Source: an uncultured Bacilli bacterium (lineage in GTDB: Bacteria > Bacillota_I > Bacilli_A > RF39 > UBA660). Taken from it: a stretch of 53,632 bases of DNA. A program made the translations under genes and the position numbers. Numbering within the stretch: the first letter of the stretch is position 1; the number at the start of each line of letters is the position of its first letter. The notes beneath the pieces are model-generated. The model saw only the letters and a program-made list of their open reading frames with translations. It did no database searches and had not been told where the DNA came from. The stretch is taken from contig CAKPCM010000001.1 in NCBI GenBank assembly GCA_934141615.1, positions 1 through 53,632 of the forward strand, in the 5' to 3' direction. Below are positions 3,527-11,812 of the stretch, one piece after another.

Positions 3527-3916
3527 ATGAAGAATAATTATGGTTTCACATTAATAGAATTACTTGCAATAGTAGTCATTTTGGGTGTTATAATTGCGGT
3601 TGCAGCACCAAATATGACTAAGCAAATTAATAAAAAAGAAGAAACAGACCAAACTATTTTAGATGAAAAAATATCAAATGCAGCTCATATGTACATAGCA
3701 AAGTATTATTCTGATAAGGTAGTTGGTGGTACTTGTGATAGTAGTACTTGTCGGTTTACTCTTAATGATTTAGAACAAGATGGCCTAATTAATTTAAATG
3801 GTAAAAATTGTACTGGTGTTATGAATAAAGATATGTTCTATTTATCAAGTAATAATTCCTATGATTTTAGTAATATAAAATCATCAGATTGTGCATCAGA
3901 TAAGATTGAAAAATAA
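3527..3916 (+). CDS. Type IV pilin-like / ComGC-like pseudopilin (prepilin N-terminal cleavage-methylation motif)
   Basis: MKNNYG|FTLIELLAIVVILGVIIAVAAP is a class III signal peptide followed by the hydrophobic helix. No assembly genes lie nearby. Confidence 0.8.
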   Translation: MKNNYGFTLIELLAIVVILGVIIAVAAPNMTKQINKKEETDQTILDEKISNAAHMYIAKYYSDKVVGGTCDSSTCRFTLNDLEQDGLINLNGKNCTGVMNKDMFYLSSNNSYDFSNIKSSDCASDKIEK

Positions 3917-3957
3917 AAGACCTAAAATGCTATTAACGTTTTAAGTCTTTTTTGTTT
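3910..3957. terminator. Bidirectional intrinsic terminator, copy 1 of a 48-nt direct repeat
   Basis: AAAATAAAAGACCTAAAATGCTATTAACGTTTTAAGTCTTTTTTGTTT. The AAGAC(C)TAAAAYG / CGTTTTAAGTCTT hairpin is flanked by A- and T-runs. It overlaps the pilin stop codon and is 46/48 identical to 5844-5891. Confidence 0.8.
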
Positions 3958-4045
3958 TATATCTGTATGCAAAACTTTATGTACCTTATTATTCTAAAAA
4001 ATTGGTACTTTAATGACTTTTTGAATAAAATTTGGTACTATTATA

Positions 4046-5251
4046 ATGGTGAGCGTTATGAATTTTGATAAAAGTAAAGTCGATGATGATAATTTAGAAC
4101 TTTTAATTACTATTTTATTTGGCGGTTTGGGTGTTCATAAATTTATGCAAAATGAAACTGGGCTTGGTGTATTATACTTATTTACATTTGGTTTGTTTGG
4201 TATAGGATGGATTTATGATATTTATACGTGTTTTTATTATAAAACTACGAAGTTTAAGGAAATTAAAAAAAGTATAAAAAATAATACGGATAAATGTAAT
4301 GAGTTGAATGAGCATATTGAGAGTTTAAAAAATTCTTATGTCGATATAAAAAAGATTGATTATGGTACTGCAAATTATTCTGACAATAGTATTTGGAATT
4401 ATAAAAGGCCAGCTATTCAAAAATTCAAAGCAGCAAATAATATCCACAATTGCTCTAGAACTGTTGTAAGTAATGCAATGAATCAACCTTTTAAGTATAT
4501 TTGTAAATATTTTAATATAAAACCAAATGAAGAAAATTTGGAAAAATTTGAAAAAATTCTTAATGATTTTTCTGCGGCAGAACAAGGTAAAATTTTATTA
4601 AAAAATGAAAGAGATGAAATTGTTGAAGAAATTAGTGATAAGATTCCACTTATAATAAGAATATTTAATAAAAAAAGGATGGTAAAAAAGTTAGGATTTA
4701 ATGACATAGATTTTAGTCGATTATATTTCCCGAAATATTCATTTAATTATGTCAGTTCAGGAGGATATAGTGGTATGCATTGCGATGTCGTTTTTGATAT
4801 TTCAAATTTAGATAAATTTATAAATTATTTATCAAGTATAATTAAATTTAGAAAAAGTATTGCTGGGCAAAGAGCGCTAATGACATCAAATTTAAGAGAA
4901 AAAATAAAAAAGAGGGATTGTTATACTTGTCAAATTTGTAAAAATTCAACTGAAAAAGAACCTAATTTGTTACTAGAAATAGACCATATCGTTCCGGTAT
5001 CAAAAGGTGGCATGACCACAGAAGATAATCTTCAAACCTTATGTTGGAAATGTAATAGAACGAAAGGATCTAAAATTACTGAATGTATCGAGAAAAAAGA
5101 TAATGATGATATTAAAATAGAAAATGATGATGTTGATAATATTAATGAGAGTAAATATGATAGAATTATTGAATATAAAAAATTACTTGATGATGGAACT
5201 TTAACAAATGAGGAGTTTGAAGCTTTGAAGAAAAAAGAGTTAATGAAATAG
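4046..5251 (+). CDS. Membrane-anchored HNH endonuclease: TM2 domain + unassigned ~210-aa region + HNH + C-terminal SHOCT-like motif
   Basis: TM2 signature GGLGVHKF..GLGVLYLFTFGLFGIGWIYDI. HNH core CQICK..EIDHIVPVSKGG..NLQTLCWKCNRTKG. C-terminal YKKLLDDGTLTNEEFEALKKKEL. Start is ambiguous (ATG 4046 or 4058) and there is no clear SD. Confidence 0.7.
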   Translation: MVSVMNFDKSKVDDDNLELLITILFGGLGVHKFMQNETGLGVLYLFTFGLFGIGWIYDIYTCFYYKTTKFKEIKKSIKNNTDKCNELNEHIESLKNSYVDIKKIDYGTANYSDNSIWNYKRPAIQKFKAANNIHNCSRTVVSNAMNQPFKYICKYFNIKPNEENLEKFEKILNDFSAAEQGKILLKNERDEIVEEISDKIPLIIRIFNKKRMVKKLGFNDIDFSRLYFPKYSFNYVSSGGYSGMHCDVVFDISNLDKFINYLSSIIKFRKSIAGQRALMTSNLREKIKKRDCYTCQICKNSTEKEPNLLLEIDHIVPVSKGGMTTEDNLQTLCWKCNRTKGSKITECIEKKDNDDIKIENDDVDNINESKYDRIIEYKKLLDDGTLTNEEFEALKKKELMK

Positions 5252-5261
5252 GAGTATTAAC

Positions 5262-5837
5262 ATGATTGAAATAGAAGAAATAAAAAAATTAAAGAAATTA
5301 TTTGACCAAGGAATTATTAATGATGTTGAATTTAAGATGGAAAAGGCCAAAATATTAGGATTAGATATTCCTGTTGAGAATGGAGTTAATGATTTATCAG
5401 ATGAAATGAAAAAATTTAAAAAAAATAAAATTAGTGAAAAAATTATGCATAGAGAACATTATTCTGAGAAAAAAGATAAAATTACAGATGAAATGACATT
5501 TCAAAGAAACATAAAACAGAAAAAAACGATATATTCAAAGGAAAAAAAGAAATATCAGGTAAAAAAAATCGTGGAGAAGTTAAAAAAGATTATTCTATGG
5601 GCATTATCTATTATTTTATGTTTATTTGGAATTGTTAGTATAGGATTGTTTTTTGATAACGGTTTAATATATTTACTTCTTGGAATAATTATGTTTGTTC
5701 AAGGCTGTATGATTTGCCCAAGAATTACAAAGTATGCTGAAAAATATAATTTTTATAAAAAGAATAGAATAATAATTATTGGTTTAACTATTTTGTTATT
5801 TGTTATTATTTGTTGTATTTTTCCTGTGAGTAAGTAG
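5262..5837 (+). CDS. SHOCT-like N-terminal motif + Lys-rich linker + three C-terminal TM helices (membrane protein)
   Basis: LKKLFDQGIINDVEFKMEKAKILG at the N-terminus. Hydrophobic segments IILWALSIILCLFGIVSIGLFF, LIYLLLGIIMFVQGCMI and IIIIGLTILLFVIICCIFPV. Starts 10 nt after the HNH gene. Confidence 0.6.
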   Translation: MIEIEEIKKLKKLFDQGIINDVEFKMEKAKILGLDIPVENGVNDLSDEMKKFKKNKISEKIMHREHYSEKKDKITDEMTFQRNIKQKKTIYSKEKKKYQVKKIVEKLKKIILWALSIILCLFGIVSIGLFFDNGLIYLLLGIIMFVQGCMICPRITKYAEKYNFYKKNRIIIIGLTILLFVIICCIFPVSK

Positions 5838-5843
5838 TTATAT

Positions 5844-5891
5844 AAAATAAAAGACCTAAAACGCTACTAACGTTTTAAGTCTTTTTTGTTT
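5844..5891. terminator. Bidirectional intrinsic terminator, copy 2 of the 48-nt direct repeat
   Basis: AAAATAAAAGACCTAAAACGCTACTAACGTTTTAAGTCTTTTTTGTTT. It overlaps the stop codon of the reverse-strand permease gene by 2 nt. Confidence 0.8.
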
Positions 5892-6687
5892 ACCATTCTT
5901 TTTTAAACCTTTTCTCTATAAATAATATTATGAAATAAAGTATGCTAGTTAATATTCCAAGCATTATAACTCCTGCAATTACTAAATTAGTGTTAAATAC
6001 CTGTGAACCATAATTTATTAAATACCCTAATCCTTCTTTAGACACCAATAATTCACCCATTATGACACCAACAAACGTCATTGATAGATTTATCTTAAGA
6101 GAACTAATTATTGTGTTTATATTAGCGGGAAATACGACTTTTGTAAATATTTGAAATTTATTTGCCTTAAAACTTTGCATTAGTCTTATACTTGTTTTAT
6201 TAGTATGTCTAAATCCTACGTACACGCTTATTATTGTTGAAATGGTTGATATTAAAAGAGCCATTAATATTATTGAGTTTTGATTAGCTCCTGCCCATAT
6301 TATTATGATTGGACCTAAAGATACTTTTGGAAGACTATTTAGTATCGTAAGATATGGGTCTAATACCTTGGAAGCAAACGGACTATACCAAAGAAAGGCC
6401 GCAAATACTATTCCAATTAATGAGCCTAAGCCAAAACTTATTAATATCTCTTTTAAGGTTACCCATACGTGCACAAATAAATCATTAGATTTATACAAAT
6501 TAATTATTGTTGTTACTACTTTTTTAGGGCTTGAACATAAAAACGAATTTATTATTCCTTTATCTGATAGAATTTGCCATAGACTTATAAACAGTATAAG
6601 TATAAATATTTGACAGAATATGACTTTTACTGTGGATAATATTTTTTGTTTCATATATTTTTTATATTCCGCTTTAGCTTCCATCAT
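5890..6687 (-). CDS. ABC transporter permease (NitT/TauT, SsuC-like family)
   Basis: Six-TM BPD_transp_1-like protein (…LNSLPKVSLGPIIIIW…) in an operon with the ATPase and an NMT1/THI5-like binding protein. Confidence 0.8.
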   Translation of the reverse strand: MMEAKAEYKKYMKQKILSTVKVIFCQIFILILFISLWQILSDKGIINSFLCSSPKKVVTTIINLYKSNDLFVHVWVTLKEILISFGLGSLIGIVFAAFLWYSPFASKVLDPYLTILNSLPKVSLGPIIIIWAGANQNSIILMALLISTISTIISVYVGFRHTNKTSIRLMQSFKANKFQIFTKVVFPANINTIISSLKINLSMTFVGVIMGELLVSKEGLGYLINYGSQVFNTNLVIAGVIMLGILTSILYFIILFIEKRFKKEW

Positions 6688-10454: not shown

Positions 10455-10781
10455 TTGCAAATTATTAAAACATCTAAGTACAAACAAGATTTGAAAAAGA
10501 AGATAGAATCTAAGCATCTAGTTAAGGAACTTCATAAATTACAAAAAATAGAAGATCTTATTTTATCAGTTAATAATTTGCAAGAGTTAATGCATCATCC
10601 TTTTAAAAGTGTATATCACATAGAAAAAAAGAGTTTTAATTTAAAGGAATATTATACGGCACATGTAAATAAAAAAATAAGGCTTCATATGAAACCAGTA
10701 GGTGATTATCCGTATAAATTAATAGAAATAACTGAGATTTGTTTTGTCAAGATAGATGATAAACATTATGGGGAGGGATAG
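10455..10781 (+). CDS. RelE/ParE-superfamily-like toxin (HigB/YafQ-like layout), 108 aa
   Basis: Size, upstream position and 2-nt gap to an XRE-HTH partner. Layout I-x-x-S-x-Y-x-x-D-L-K-K … H … Y-x-A-H-V … R-L resembles YafQ/RelE. TTG start follows AGGAGG. Confidence 0.5.
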   Translation: MQIIKTSKYKQDLKKKIESKHLVKELHKLQKIEDLILSVNNLQELMHHPFKSVYHIEKKSFNLKEYYTAHVNKKIRLHMKPVGDYPYKLIEITEICFVKIDDKHYGEG

Positions 10782-10783
10782 TT

Positions 10784-11812
10784 ATGTTTGGATTTGGAAG
10801 CATGTTAAAAGATTATTTAGAGTACCATAGAATTTCTCAAAGTGATTTTGCAGAGAGGTTAGGCGTTACTAAAAAACACATAAATAATATACTAAATGAA
10901 AATGCTGATATTTCAGAAGATTTAATGATTGCAATTAGTCTTGTTACTGATATTGATATTAACCTTATAGCGTTAGTTGAAACTAAGAAGAAACTATATA
11001 ATTATCTGAATGAAAGATTTAAAAGTGAAAAAGAAATAAATGACTTTCTAAATTCTTTTTACATAAAAGAGATGTCTAAGAAAAATTGGATAACACTAAA
11101 TGATAAAACGTCTTATCTTCAAAACGCATATGATTTGCTTAAGTATTTAAACGTTAGAGATTTTAATATATTTGATAAATATTCGAAAGAAAAGATTTTC
11201 TTTAAAAAGTATGATAATTCTAACTTAAAGAAGGTTTTCTTATGGATTAAAAGATGTGATAATTTAATAGAAGATCAAAACCCAGCAGGTTATAGTGCTC
11301 TTAGTATAAATAAACTTCTAGCGGAACTTGAAAAAGAAAGAAATAAACCATTTAATAAAAAAAGTTTGGTAGAAATATTTAATAAATATGGTTTTTATCT
11401 TGTGATTGAAGATGCTTTAGTTGGAACCAAAGTAAGAGGATGTACAAAGGTTATTGGAAATAATCCCGCTATTTACATGACATGTCATTTAAAGGAAAAA
11501 TCATCATTTTACTTTGCACTATACCATGAAATCGGTCACGTTAAAAGCGATTATAACAGAGCTAAAAGTAAAGCAATAATAGATGGAGATGATGCTTTGG
11601 AAAAAAGAGCTGATTTGTTCGCAACTAAAAAAATGATTGATGATGAAACTTATAAGATGATACTAAATGATTTAAAGAATAGAGATAAAATATGCAAAGA
11701 AAAAAATATTCCATTATGTTTTTTATATTCTAGGTTAGCATATGATGGAATAATTAAGTATAACAATAAAGACTATCTTAAGAATAGAGAAAGCCTTAAT
11801 TATGATAATTAA
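10784..11812 (+). CDS. Fused XRE-family HTH + ImmA/IrrE (COG2856) zinc metallopeptidase
   Basis: N-terminal HTH ISQSDFAERLGVTKKHINNILN. C-terminal HEIGH (HExxH) followed by EKRADLFA, typical of ImmA/IrrE peptidases. Confidence 0.8.
   Translation: MFGFGSMLKDYLEYHRISQSDFAERLGVTKKHINNILNENADISEDLMIAISLVTDIDINLIALVETKKKLYNYLNERFKSEKEINDFLNSFYIKEMSKKNWITLNDKTSYLQNAYDLLKYLNVRDFNIFDKYSKEKIFFKKYDNSNLKKVFLWIKRCDNLIEDQNPAGYSALSINKLLAELEKERNKPFNKKSLVEIFNKYGFYLVIEDALVGTKVRGCTKVIGNNPAIYMTCHLKEKSSFYFALYHEIGHVKSDYNRAKSKAIIDGDDALEKRADLFATKKMIDDETYKMILNDLKNRDKICKEKNIPLCFLYSRLAYDGIIKYNNKDYLKNRESLNYDN

Follow-up and report, generated by a model that had tools for sequence, protein, structure and literature searches.

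One lineage of a low-G+C, spore-forming, Clostridia-like species has gained an accessory cassette of 1934 bp, counted as the insert and one repeat copy, at a terminator that two convergent genes share in sister strains. The cassette carries a gene for a membrane-anchored HNH protein (gene 1) followed by a gene for a second membrane protein (gene 2). The explanation that we favour, with slightly better than even confidence, is that of a chimeric accessory cassette which landed in the shared terminator and encodes a membrane-tethered immune nuclease directed against phages or mobile DNA.

Insertion into a shared bidirectional terminator

The window (the whole stretch of DNA analysed, 53.6 kb) contains two 48-nt direct repeats, at positions 3910-3957 and 5844-5891, which are identical at 46 of 48 positions. 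A pattern scan with the 43-nt core of the repeat, allowing up to three mismatches, matched at these two sites only, with no match expected in shuffled sequence. Folding of the 48-nt unit produced a 15-bp stem with one mismatch and a 7-nt loop (-10.1 kcal/mol for the hairpin of copy 1), and the duplication comprises this whole imperfect palindrome. Since T-runs follow the hairpin on both strands, the unit corresponds to a bidirectional intrinsic terminator. A longer repeat of 69 nt was rejected, as the additional 21 nt agree at 11 of 21 positions in AT-rich DNA, which is the chance level.

Copy 1, now the terminator of the left-flank gene, contains the stop codon (TAA, 3914-3916) of a type IV pilin/pseudopilin-like gene of 129 aa (3527-3916, plus strand; Pfam N_methyl, E 2.7e-7), which also gave weak ComGC/GspG matches under the cut-off. 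Copy 2 now serves both gene 2 and the convergent gene of the right flank, an ABC transporter permease of 265 aa (5890-6687, minus strand; Pfam BPD_transp_1, E 1e-21) whose stop codon (5890-5892) overlaps it by 2 nt. The initial annotation had described the recurring terminator segment, its overlap with both stop codons, and exactly two co-oriented genes 10 nt apart between the copies, with no recombinase. Each of these points was confirmed: the repeat occurs exactly twice in the window, the ORF map contains only two ORFs between the copies, and neither is a recombinase according to Pfam. The window also encodes SpoIVA and ChW repeats, which indicate no more than a spore-forming, Clostridia-type member of the Bacillota.

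In seven sister contigs (L019, L014, L016, L020, L022, L023 and L015), the same pilin and permease genes adjoin a single terminator, forming an empty site that consists of the pilin stop, one terminator copy and the permease stop. Filled alleles were found in L001, L002, L017, L018 and L021. Copy 2 of the window is identical to the single copy of the empty alleles L022 and L015. The G+C content is 0.22-0.26 in the cassette versus 0.29-0.36 in its flanks, and the nearest relatives of the cassette occupy unrelated sites in other genomes. Together with the empty alleles, these observations indicate an insertion that duplicated the terminator. The insertion is real and polymorphic among sister strains. 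The proposed ancestral state, a pilin gene and a convergent permease gene sharing one terminator in which a 1.9-kb cassette later landed, was thus recovered by the comparison of pilin/ABC junctions that had been suggested as its check. Because the full 48-nt palindrome is doubled on both sides, all four genes retain a terminator. Flanking repeats were searched for and not found around the sister cassettes L003, L110 and L108, indicating that the terminator duplication is specific to the insertion event of the window.

The 48-nt direct repeats, with one copy in the empty site, resemble the attL and attR of an integrase-borne island, but the recombinase that such an island or a prophage carries within the element is absent from the two ORFs between them. 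The cassette is comparable to integrase-less att-flanked islets (CIME-like elements), with which it shares a short cargo between direct repeats of the target and no recombinase inside; other members of the HNH family likewise lie at tRNA 3' ends with duplicated ends. It differs from such islets in that the target is a terminator hairpin and not a tRNA and that a cognate integrase was not found, and the mechanism is putative. Integration may have occurred by recombination at the hairpin, the candidates being a tyrosine-recombinase-type att site with the recombinase supplied in trans, the resolution of an extruded cruciform, or a Campbell-type single crossover.

Gene 1 and its family

The plus-strand leader of the cassette (3958-4057) contains a promoter-like site, found by consensus scan only and putative in this role (TTGGTA at 4002-4007, an 18-nt spacer, TAAAAT at 4026-4031), and an RBS-like GGTGAG at 4048-4053; DNA homology to the sister cassette L003 starts at 4024. 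Gene 1 (4058-5251, plus strand) encodes 397 aa, or 401 aa when read from ATG 4046. The start at ATG 4058 is likelier, as it is preceded by GGTGAG and all database copies are called at 397 aa. The protein comprises a TM2 anchor (4100-4222; 45.4 bits, Pfam cut-off 27.9), a conserved middle domain (about 4229-4909), an HNH domain (4928-5071; 54.4 bits, cut-off 21.4) followed by an acidic linker, and a SHOCT-like tail (5159-5236), and the TM2 and HNH assignments of the initial annotation therefore stand. That annotation had also placed SHOCT-like motifs in both genes. The motif of gene 2 (PF09851, residues 5-32, matching the bi-helical motif of ~28 aa) scored 30.3 bits, above the cut-off of 27, while the tail of gene 1 scored 23.4 bits, below it; this tail shares 48% identity with the SHOCT tails of Band-7 proteins (E 7e-10) and 45% with the SHOCT of gene 2. 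Judged by the positive-inside rule only, the gene 1 protein is predicted to be inserted in the cytoplasmic membrane and to have its catalytic part on the cytoplasmic side.

Alignment of 89 homologues revealed that D309, H310, N324 and N333 are invariant, in agreement with the beta-beta-alpha-metal core of the HNH / His-Me finger superfamily, as are the CxxC...CxxC pairs of a Cys4 zinc site (C291, C294, C329 and C332). Foldseek matches of the structure model (pLDDT 80) were confined to the HNH domain and included Gme HNH (4h9d), McrA (6ghc) and Cas9 HNH at probability 1.0, with weak E-values for this small domain. The middle domain had no match in Pfam, NCBIfam, PHROGs or PADLOC, in a PDB sequence search, or by Foldseek of the full model against PDB and BFVD; modelled alone and compared with PDB, it gave a best E of 1.6 at a probability below 0.1. 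About 210 residues had been called unassignable on first reading, and a fold search had been advised for finding their relatives. That search returned none and the region has no Pfam or PDB match, but far from being a local oddity it is the best-conserved region and defines a very large family.

Homologues of gene 1 fell into more than 4123 clusters at E<=1e-3, and the middle domain alone into 276 clusters at 50% identity. A collection of GTDB species-representative genomes yielded 504 confirmed family matches, 50-74% identical, and the phyla represented include Bacillota, Saccharibacteria, Melainabacteria, Pseudomonadota, Bacteroidota, Fusobacteriota and CPR. Members share a variable N-terminal membrane anchor, the conserved middle domain of about 230 aa and the HNH domain. 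The N-terminal part varies from 11 to 163 aa in the alignment and contains a hydrophobic anchor or TM2 domain in about 95% of members, and a weak Endonuclease_7 match was present in 89 of 89. The family has no name in Pfam, NCBIfam or PADLOC, and the literature held nothing fitting a named TM-HNH defence system. With PADLOC v2 at E<=0.1, gene 1 was recognised by generic HNH-core models only, in line with the earlier remark that no named defence system could be recognised. Gene 1 is a member of a large, undescribed family that spreads horizontally.

Its members are usually solitary (>95%), and more than 95% lack both gene 2 and the SHOCT tail. No conserved neighbour gene was found in 80 genome loci, where most immediate neighbours are ordinary housekeeping genes. 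In 16 of 42 loci there is a tRNA or tmRNA gene no further than about 1.5 kb away, and 11 loci have an integrase-type gene cluster within four genes. Family members are present on at least 118 IMG/VR contigs; inspected by hand, not tallied, many of those on prophage-sized contigs lie close to a contig end, at a distance of a few kb or less, the prophage borders being predictions so that contig-end genes may be host flank. In the Mycobacterium prophage prophiGD13-2 the member is a reverse-oriented moron, and others are found on mobilizable plasmids. Direct repeats of 19-201 nt bracket segments of 1.3-3.5 kb with the HNH gene as only or main ORF in unrelated genomes (L078, L056, L063, L089, L048, L103, L039, L036 and L044). 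Most family loci have no flanking repeat, and repeats of at least 30 nt showed a modest enrichment, in 5 of 64 family loci versus 1 of 125 control genes (p=0.018).

Several members have defence-related surroundings. Of the closest SHOCT-tailed relatives, the one in L110 adjoins HEPN_AbiU2, and another is found in an island together with PDC-S57, a PD-T4-6-like kinase, PDC-M14A and Cas9-Cas1. The suggestion that homologues sit in defence islands applies to some members, such as those near HEPN_AbiU2 and in the PDC-S57 island; across the 80 genome loci, housekeeping genes predominate among the immediate neighbours. P0125, P0128 and the Psychrobacter plasmid pA18BP2 contain fusions of the middle-domain-HNH module with 3-6 Ltp repeats. 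These repeats follow the nuclease with no TM segment between the two, so that the topology of the fusion differs from that of the classical surface lipoprotein Ltp, a superinfection-exclusion protein reported to target the tape measure protein of the phage (Bebeacua 2013, as cited in PMC3952083).

Gene 2 and the Band-7 connection

Gene 2 (5262-5837, plus strand, 191 aa) encodes a SHOCT motif (5274-5357), a linker rich in Lys (20 of 76 residues) and a C-terminal part of three hydrophobic helices predicted by hydropathy to be TM helices (about 5577-5834), with a weak LiaI-LiaF-TM/PspC-like Pfam match (E 5e-4, under cut-off). It is separated from gene 1 by a 10-nt junction (5252-5261, plus strand) which, with the stop codon, reads AAATAGGAGTATTAACATG (stop, RBS, start). 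An initial search with gene 2 found the same-species copy only, which was misleading; a profile including the L110 homologue (47% identity) recovered seven more. These homologues (P0292-P0298) adjoin Band_7_1-SHOCT proteins, and P0293, P0295 and P0297 are each directly downstream of a Band_7_1-Zn-ribbon-SHOCT protein. In the pairs of L191-L194, the downstream protein is 32-35% identical to gene 2, the upstream protein has the same SHOCT tail, and the junction is of the same stop-RBS-start type, reading AAATAGGAGTAGAATTATG in L192. The upstream protein of these pairs differs from gene 1 in being a membrane-scaffold Band-7 protein and not a nuclease, and mobile or defence context was absent from the flanks examined.

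Within the nuclease family, no gene 2 homologue was found in 80 genome loci, although the pair is kept in L110. The 13 contigs of the P0002 lineage carry gene 2 as a pseudogene without its SHOCT head, whereas all invariant catalytic residues of the nuclease are preserved, and the P0005 loci have an intact nuclease and nothing recognisable of gene 2. An extension with several TM segments at the C-terminus of P0126 was considered as a gene 2 homologue and rejected (E 0.6). The idea of a conserved two-gene module whose halves would co-occur in other genomes is therefore not upheld. Gene 2 is not a family-wide partner of the nuclease, its relatives normally following Band-7/SPFH proteins with a SHOCT tail. 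As these relatives partner Band-7/SPFH-SHOCT proteins and not nucleases, the cassette is a chimera, in which a mobile nuclease gene captured a SHOCT tail and a partner gene. Its 5' part is a member of the single-gene nuclease family (anchor, ~230-aa middle domain and Cys4 HNH), and its 3' part (SHOCT tail, stop-RBS-start junction and SHOCT-linker-3TM gene) derives from a Band-7/SPFH operon. The SHOCT motif had been described as a small oligomerisation motif; this is not an established role, and the sole published test failed to support it (PMC3581485).

A proposed membrane-tethered immune nuclease and its alternatives

Anti-phage or anti-MGE defence by a membrane-tethered nuclease is the most likely function of the gene 1 protein, by analogy with SNIPE (PD-lambda-1, E. 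coli; Saxton et al., Nature 2026, PMC13190303). SNIPE, a nuclease with a TM anchor and a variable N-terminal part, cleaves phage DNA during injection, gives direct, non-abortive immunity and becomes toxic without its TM segment (PMC13190303). Like the gene 1 family, it is a single protein with a poorly conserved N-terminal anchor of variable length, a conserved middle domain and a C-terminal nuclease, and is patchily distributed across phyla; its catalytic part has been shown to be cytoplasmic, as predicted for gene 1. It differs in its nuclease, which is GIY-YIG (T5orf172-type), whereas that of gene 1 is an HNH with a Cys4 zinc site. DUF4041, the SNIPE middle domain, had no match in the window protein at E<=1 and was outside the 25 most often matched families among 89 members, and the PADLOC PD-Lambda-1 model did not match gene 1 at E<=0.1, indicating that the resemblance reflects analogy or convergence and not homology. 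Tethering would hold the nuclease away from the chromosome and near the site of DNA entry, as for SNIPE, and the variable anchor, a TM2 domain in this case, may tune its localisation or triggering together with the SHOCT-coupled membrane partner found in this lineage, rather than either of them acting as an antidote.

Other known systems share parts of gene 1. Ltp-type superinfection-exclusion lipoproteins (phage TP-J34; PF07553) are linked to the family by the Ltp fusions, but the window protein has no Ltp repeat and Ltp itself is no nuclease. The HNH nucleases of restriction and defence (McrA type IV, Septu PtuB, type II REases, Cas9/IscB HNH) share the beta-beta-alpha-Me core and Cys4 zinc site, and gave the best PADLOC, NCBIfam and Foldseek matches (4h9d, 6ghc, Cas9 HNH), which span only about 60-70 residues. 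The gene 1 cassette differs from them in lacking a PtuA ATPase, a methyl-/PT-reading domain, RuvC and a guide RNA, and in adding a membrane anchor and the novel middle domain. Septu (PtuAB) was rejected, as PtuB models match residues 279-351 only (E 3e-6) and the ATPase gene is absent from the cassette. The early proposal of a conflict module is supported by context alone, namely the defence-island and prophage-end neighbourhoods, the Ltp fusions and the patchy cross-phylum spread; its variant as a toxin/immunity pair is not.

That variant, an addiction module in which an HNH toxin is neutralised by the SHOCT membrane protein through SHOCT-SHOCT binding, is decidedly improbable. The 10-nt gap suggesting tight coupling, the matching SHOCT segments, the pair kept in L110 and the mobile context fit it, but an obligate antidote would not be a pseudogene (P0002) or absent (P0005) beside an intact nuclease, nor missing from a family that is more than 95% solitary, and the gene 2 family normally stands beside non-toxic Band-7 proteins. 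A membrane-held, inactive nuclease could alternatively be freed by phage-induced membrane damage or proteolysis and degrade all DNA, killing the infected cell, with gene 2 (SHOCT and PspC/LiaF-like TM) as the membrane-stress sensor. We consider such abortive infection possible but unlikely. The weak LiaI-LiaF-TM/PspC match, the Band-7/SPFH scaffold proteins that partner gene 2 relatives, the HEPN_AbiU2 neighbour in L110, the toxicity of SNIPE without its TM segment (PMC13190303) and the proposal that SHOCT-type modules assemble sub-membrane stress complexes (PMC11237479) would all agree with it. Against it, gene 2 is missing in most family members, which therefore need no dedicated sensor, the Ltp fusions indicate the injection step rather than late membrane damage, and nothing points to a protease or a release mechanism.

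An EndoVII-like, structure-specific HNH nuclease might cut hairpin or cruciform targets and promote the insertion of its own gene, which would account for mini-cassettes that lack an integrase and lie between duplicated terminators or tRNA 3' ends. The duplication of a full imperfect palindrome, the bracketed segments in unrelated genomes, the enrichment of repeats over control genes and the weak Endonuclease_7 match in all aligned members are consistent with such a selfish gene. We nevertheless give this reading very little weight: a membrane anchor fits poorly with a chromosomal mobility role, repeat lengths vary widely, unlike those of a fixed-stagger mechanism, flanking repeats are missing at most loci, and tyrosine integrases, for which a duplicated tRNA 3' end is the classic signature, adjoin the gene at other loci. 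Also improbable in our estimate is a combined reading in which an unrecognised, phylum-spanning, single-gene immune nuclease, SNIPE-like but built from unrelated parts, spreads as integrase-less 1.3-3.5-kb mini-cassettes that duplicate targets of hairpin type, namely bidirectional terminators and tRNA 3' ends, with its own structure-specific, EndoVII-like nuclease helping to make the insertion site. The adjacent ComGC/GspG-like pilin gene and the membrane-anchored His-Me nuclease could also suggest a competence or DNA-uptake nuclease like EndA or NucA. This is scarcely credible, as the adjacency is due to the insertion, the pilin gene is present and the nuclease gene absent in sister strains, pilin linkage was not found at other homologue loci, and the positive-inside rule and Cys4 zinc site favour a cytoplasmic catalytic domain.

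If the family does consist of immune nucleases, SNIPE-style immunity, in which a non-specific nuclease tethered to the membrane meets DNA only on its entry into the cell, would not be a one-off. The strategy would have arisen on two or more occasions from unrelated parts, GIY-YIG with DUF4041 and HNH with a new domain, and would extend into Bacillota, CPR bacteria and prophages. The conserved 230-aa domain would become a new candidate for a module that senses or binds DNA or the tape measure protein. The filled and empty alleles provide a clean natural case of a terminator hairpin used as an insertion site with full-palindrome duplication. The cassette also appears to illustrate how defence genes are rebuilt, a mobile nuclease having taken a SHOCT tail and a membrane partner from a Band-7/SPFH operon, and as such a chimera it would make the poorly understood SHOCT motif accessible to testing.

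A polymorphic insertion between the pilin and permease genes

The two copies of the 48-nt repeat that bracket the cassette (3910-3957 and 5844-5891) match at 46 of 48 positions. As stated in the initial annotation, the two copies coincide with the stop codons of the flanking genes: the pilin stop codon lies within copy 1, and the permease stop codon overlaps copy 2, by 2 nt. With three mismatches allowed, the 43-nt core of the repeat was found only at these two sites of the 53.6-kb window, for an expectation of no match from shuffled sequences. The repeat unit is an imperfect palindrome composed of AAAAT, a 15-nt arm, a 7-nt loop (CTAYTAA), a second 15-nt arm and TTGTTT. The palindrome is followed by T-runs on each strand, and the unit is therefore a bidirectional intrinsic terminator. 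Only two ORFs, in the same orientation and 10 nt apart, lie between the copies, so that the cassette, in contrast to a self-contained integrative element, contains no recombinase. For the first ORF, a start at 4046, which gives the proposed length of 401 aa, is less probable than one at the ATG at 4058 (397 aa), because the latter is preceded by GGTGAG and 397 aa is the length of every copy in the databases. The left end of the window is occupied by rRNA sequence, namely the 3' terminal part of a 23S gene (1-164) and an entire 5S gene (221-325), and a tsaE-tsaB-rimI-tsaD operon comes next.

Contigs of sister strains were retrieved from public assemblies with the exact pilin and permease proteins, and three states of the junction were returned. 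Filled alleles, with the two genes and the repeats arranged as in the window, were present on L001, L002, L017, L018 and L021. Empty alleles, with exactly one repeat unit between both stop codons ('...GAAAAATAAAAGACCTAAAACGCTAYTAACGTTTTAAGTC(A/C/-)TTTTTTGTTTACCATTC...'), were present on seven contigs (L019, L014, L016, L020, L022, L023 and L015). An ancestral arrangement of pilin and permease genes converging on a single terminator had been proposed, with a single-copy empty site expected in relatives; both were found in these seven contigs. Window copy 2 and both of its flanks recur without any difference at the empty sites of L022 and L015. The empty alleles comprise three sequence variants and the filled alleles trace to one of them only. 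The G+C content of the cassette (0.22-0.26) is lower than that of its flanks (0.29-0.36), and in other genomes its nearest relatives are found at sites unrelated to this one. The parsimonious reading is therefore that the cassette was gained by insertion, and it is polymorphic among sister strains. The insert measures 1934 bp, including one repeat copy.

The duplicated 48 nt correspond to the entire imperfect palindrome. Extrusion of this palindrome as a cruciform could account for the duplication, as its resolution would put a full palindrome at both ends; a Campbell-type single crossover with a circle carrying one repeat copy gives the same product. The two 15-nt inverted arms and 7-nt spacer resemble the core site of a tyrosine recombinase. 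Integrases acting in trans would be the simplest explanation. Direct repeats also bracket other genes of the gene 1 family in unrelated genomes, with no recombinase inside. These repeats (201, 93, 75, 66, 39, 37, 23, 20 and 19 nt, four of the nine being tRNA 3' ends) are spaced by 1.3-3.5 kb. Of 64 family loci, 5 had repeats of at least 30 nt, whereas among 125 control genes there was 1 (p=0.018), a modest enrichment that is suggestive. Repeats of 37-201 nt surround family genes of unrelated phyla at L078:3367-4913, L056:116-1514, L063:7747-9624, L089:7775-10369, L048:7685-11189 and L103:958-2355; the L048 repeat consists of the 3' end of a tRNA-Thr gene and its terminator hairpin.

Two further observations concern the surroundings of the junction. 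Between strains, the pilin gene is only 78-81% identical at its 3' end (window 3800-3916 versus L014:2549-2653 and L016:1353-1477) and the pilin proteins range from 126 to 132 aa, the permease side being 97.5-99% identical; the pilin C-terminus is probably hypervariable or mosaic. A second, different mobile element, with genes for a large serine recombinase and an ArdC-N anti-restriction-like protein, lies a few hundred bases away in other strains of the species (L020:3826-6722, L022:2829-3382, L015:1-3542). It interrupts the ABC permease gene in L020 and L022, leaving a 56-aa remnant, and the ABC ATPase gene in L015, leaving a 65-aa remnant. Its presence near the cassette site thus marks the locus as a repeated landing zone.

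The gene 1 nuclease family and its genomic contexts

The Pfam domains of gene 1 (401-aa numbering) are TM2 (19-59), HNH (295-342) and, below threshold, SHOCT (372-397). About 210 aa had been left unassigned by the initial annotation, and residues 60-290 indeed gave no domain match; they are however not a local gap but a near-invariant part of a very large family that carries no name. Homologues form more than 4123 protein clusters, typically 57-76% identical across residues ~60-345. When only the middle domain was used for an exhaustive search, 276 clusters at 50% identity were returned, and 504 family matches (50-74% identical) were confirmed in a one-genome-per-species collection. The latter come, among others, from Bacillota, Saccharibacteria, Melainabacteria/Gastranaerophilales, Bacteroidota, Fusobacteriota, Alpha-, Beta-, Gamma- and Deltaproteobacteria, Bifidobacteriaceae, Acidobacteriota and CPR phyla. 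Such high identity combined with such a patchy distribution indicates horizontal spread of the family.

In alignments, the middle and HNH domains hardly vary, and D309, H310, N324, N333 and the Cys4 zinc site are among the near-invariant positions. The N-terminus (11-163 aa) is variable: some members have a TM2 domain, others one or two plain TM helices or a zinc ribbon with a TM segment, and a hydrophobic anchor is present in ~95% of members. Lys-rich segments directly after the anchors suggest that the catalytic domain is cytoplasmic. The AlphaFold model of the full protein has a pLDDT of 80, that of the isolated middle domain 75.5. Foldseek searches with the gene 1 model matched the HNH domain only (Gme HNH 4h9d, McrA 6ghc, Cas9 HNH), and the middle domain had neither sequence nor fold match in the PDB. 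Gene 1 thus encodes a member of the HNH superfamily with an intact catalytic site, also carrying a TM2 and a SHOCT-like motif, and its middle domain is a novel conserved domain.

No conserved neighbour gene was found among the family loci examined. A tRNA or tmRNA gene lies within ~1.5 kb at 16 of 42 distinct loci, usually with its 3' end toward the nuclease gene, and an integrase-type gene cluster lies at most four genes away at 11 loci. Family members were found on at least 118 IMG/VR contigs; in many prophage-sized ones, read by hand without a tally, the gene is within a few kb of the contig end. Family members are also carried by mobilizable plasmids and, as a reverse-oriented moron, by the Mycobacterium prophage prophiGD13-2. 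Occasional neighbours are IrrE/HTH pairs, Fic/SoFic, PDC-S02/S04 and mad genes, and HEPN_AbiU2 adjoins one of the closest SHOCT-tailed relatives (locus L110). Since many further neighbours are ordinary housekeeping genes, the mobile or defence association is real but not exclusive, and the conflict module proposed initially is supported by context to that extent.

The loci of another of these closest relatives, P0005 (L108:1171-11185 and L109), form a compact defence island with PDC-S57 (T5orf172), a PD-T4-6-like Ser/Thr kinase, a PDC-M14A-like protein, the TM2-HNH nuclease, a 276-aa membrane protein and then Cas9-Cas1. In the window itself, a 108-aa ORF followed by a 342-aa HTH/IrrE-like protein (10455-11812; PADLOC PD-Lambda-2_B match, E 6e-18) represents a second candidate pair of defence or TA-like type; it lies ~4.6 kb away from the cassette, and L019, a strain with an empty site, has it too. 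In the region 12000-53632, housekeeping and cell-envelope genes form a co-directional block (SpoIVA, ChW repeats, rhamnose and glycosyltransferase genes). Two further products of this region, a Schlafen-group-3-type helicase and a YhcG PDDEXK nuclease, are of kinds frequent in defence contexts.

Gene 2 and the chimeric cassette

In a first search for homologues, gene 2 looked like an orphan. An intact homologue (186 aa, 47% identity, E 2e-58) is present at L110, 12 nt downstream of P0003, a SHOCT-tailed nuclease 75% identical to gene 1. The loci of the relative P0002 retain only a decayed 3' remnant of gene 2, with in-frame stops and the SHOCT head gone, and no trace of it was found at the P0005 loci. 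The SHOCT tail is present in 4 of 89 aligned family members and gene 2 occurs only with these; it is not an obligate partner of the nuclease.

A profile search revealed further gene 2 relatives (P0292-P0298, 32-35% identity). The three that were looked up (P0293, P0295 and P0297, from different samples) each directly follow a gene for a Band_7_1 (SPFH)-zinc-ribbon protein with a terminal SHOCT tail. These Band-7 SHOCT tails share 48% identity with the tail of gene 1 (E 7e-10), and the junction AAATAGGAGTA-N-ATG is common to the cassette and the Band-7/SHOCT operon. Because gene 2 relatives follow Band-7 proteins, and because tail and junction are alike, sequence comparison shows the cassette to be a chimera: a Band-7/SHOCT operon supplied, in one capture, the 3' end of gene 1 with the junction and gene 2, and these were fused to a mobile nuclease gene. 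The Band_7_1-zinc ribbon-SHOCT and SHOCT-linker-3TM gene pair is itself conserved in three samples (L191:244-2049, L192:3878-5651, L194:197-2061) and appears to be undescribed. L191 and L192 have the same stop-RBS-start junction as the window; the L194 genes are ~125 nt apart.

The shared SHOCT motif had been interpreted as an oligomerisation motif. Tail and partner gene travel as a unit, and this makes a good indirect case for an interaction between the tail and the gene 2 product. As a caution, self-oligomerisation was not supported in the only published test (PMC3581485). SHOCT-type modules have been proposed to assemble or anchor sub-membrane complexes (PMC11237479).

A putative immune nuclease at the membrane

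Three independent members (P0125, P0128 and WP_181718255) carry three to six Ltp repeats C-terminal to the HNH domain, with no TM segment separating nuclease and repeats. WP_181718255, from the Psychrobacter plasmid pA18BP2 (L105:1406-3070), is named only 'Ltp family lipoprotein' in RefSeq. Ltp is the prototype surface lipoprotein of superinfection exclusion, and its target is reported to be the phage tape measure protein (Bebeacua 2013, as cited in PMC3952083). An unrelated C-terminal multi-TM module is present in P0126. Through such fusions the nuclease module is linked with the membrane and with the step of DNA injection.

SNIPE (PD-lambda-1) is the best precedent. It combines a variable TM anchor at its N-terminus with DUF4041 and a GIY-YIG nuclease, cuts phage DNA during injection and becomes toxic once its TM segment is removed (PMC13190303). 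Gene 1 differs from it in having neither DUF4041 nor GIY-YIG and no match to the PD-Lambda-1 model; the cassette would encode a predicted membrane-tethered immune nuclease following SNIPE logic with unrelated parts. A defence role at the membrane is moderately likely, whereas action specifically at the injection site is a more tentative proposal. The main rival is an abortive mechanism in which the nuclease is sequestered and then released. A toxin-antidote pair, one of the options given in the initial annotation, is disfavoured, because the nuclease stays intact where gene 2 is decayed (P0002) or missing (P0005), and the two genes lack the obligate co-occurrence of a TA pair. In contrast to Septu, no PtuA accompanies the cassette. 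PADLOC v2, NCBIfam and PHROGs recognised nothing in gene 1 beyond the HNH core and searches of the accessible literature found no named system matching the family, in line with the earlier statement that the cassette corresponds to no named defence system. The gene 1 family may represent a membrane-anchored immune nuclease of a familiar type, whose novelty lies in its conserved middle domain.
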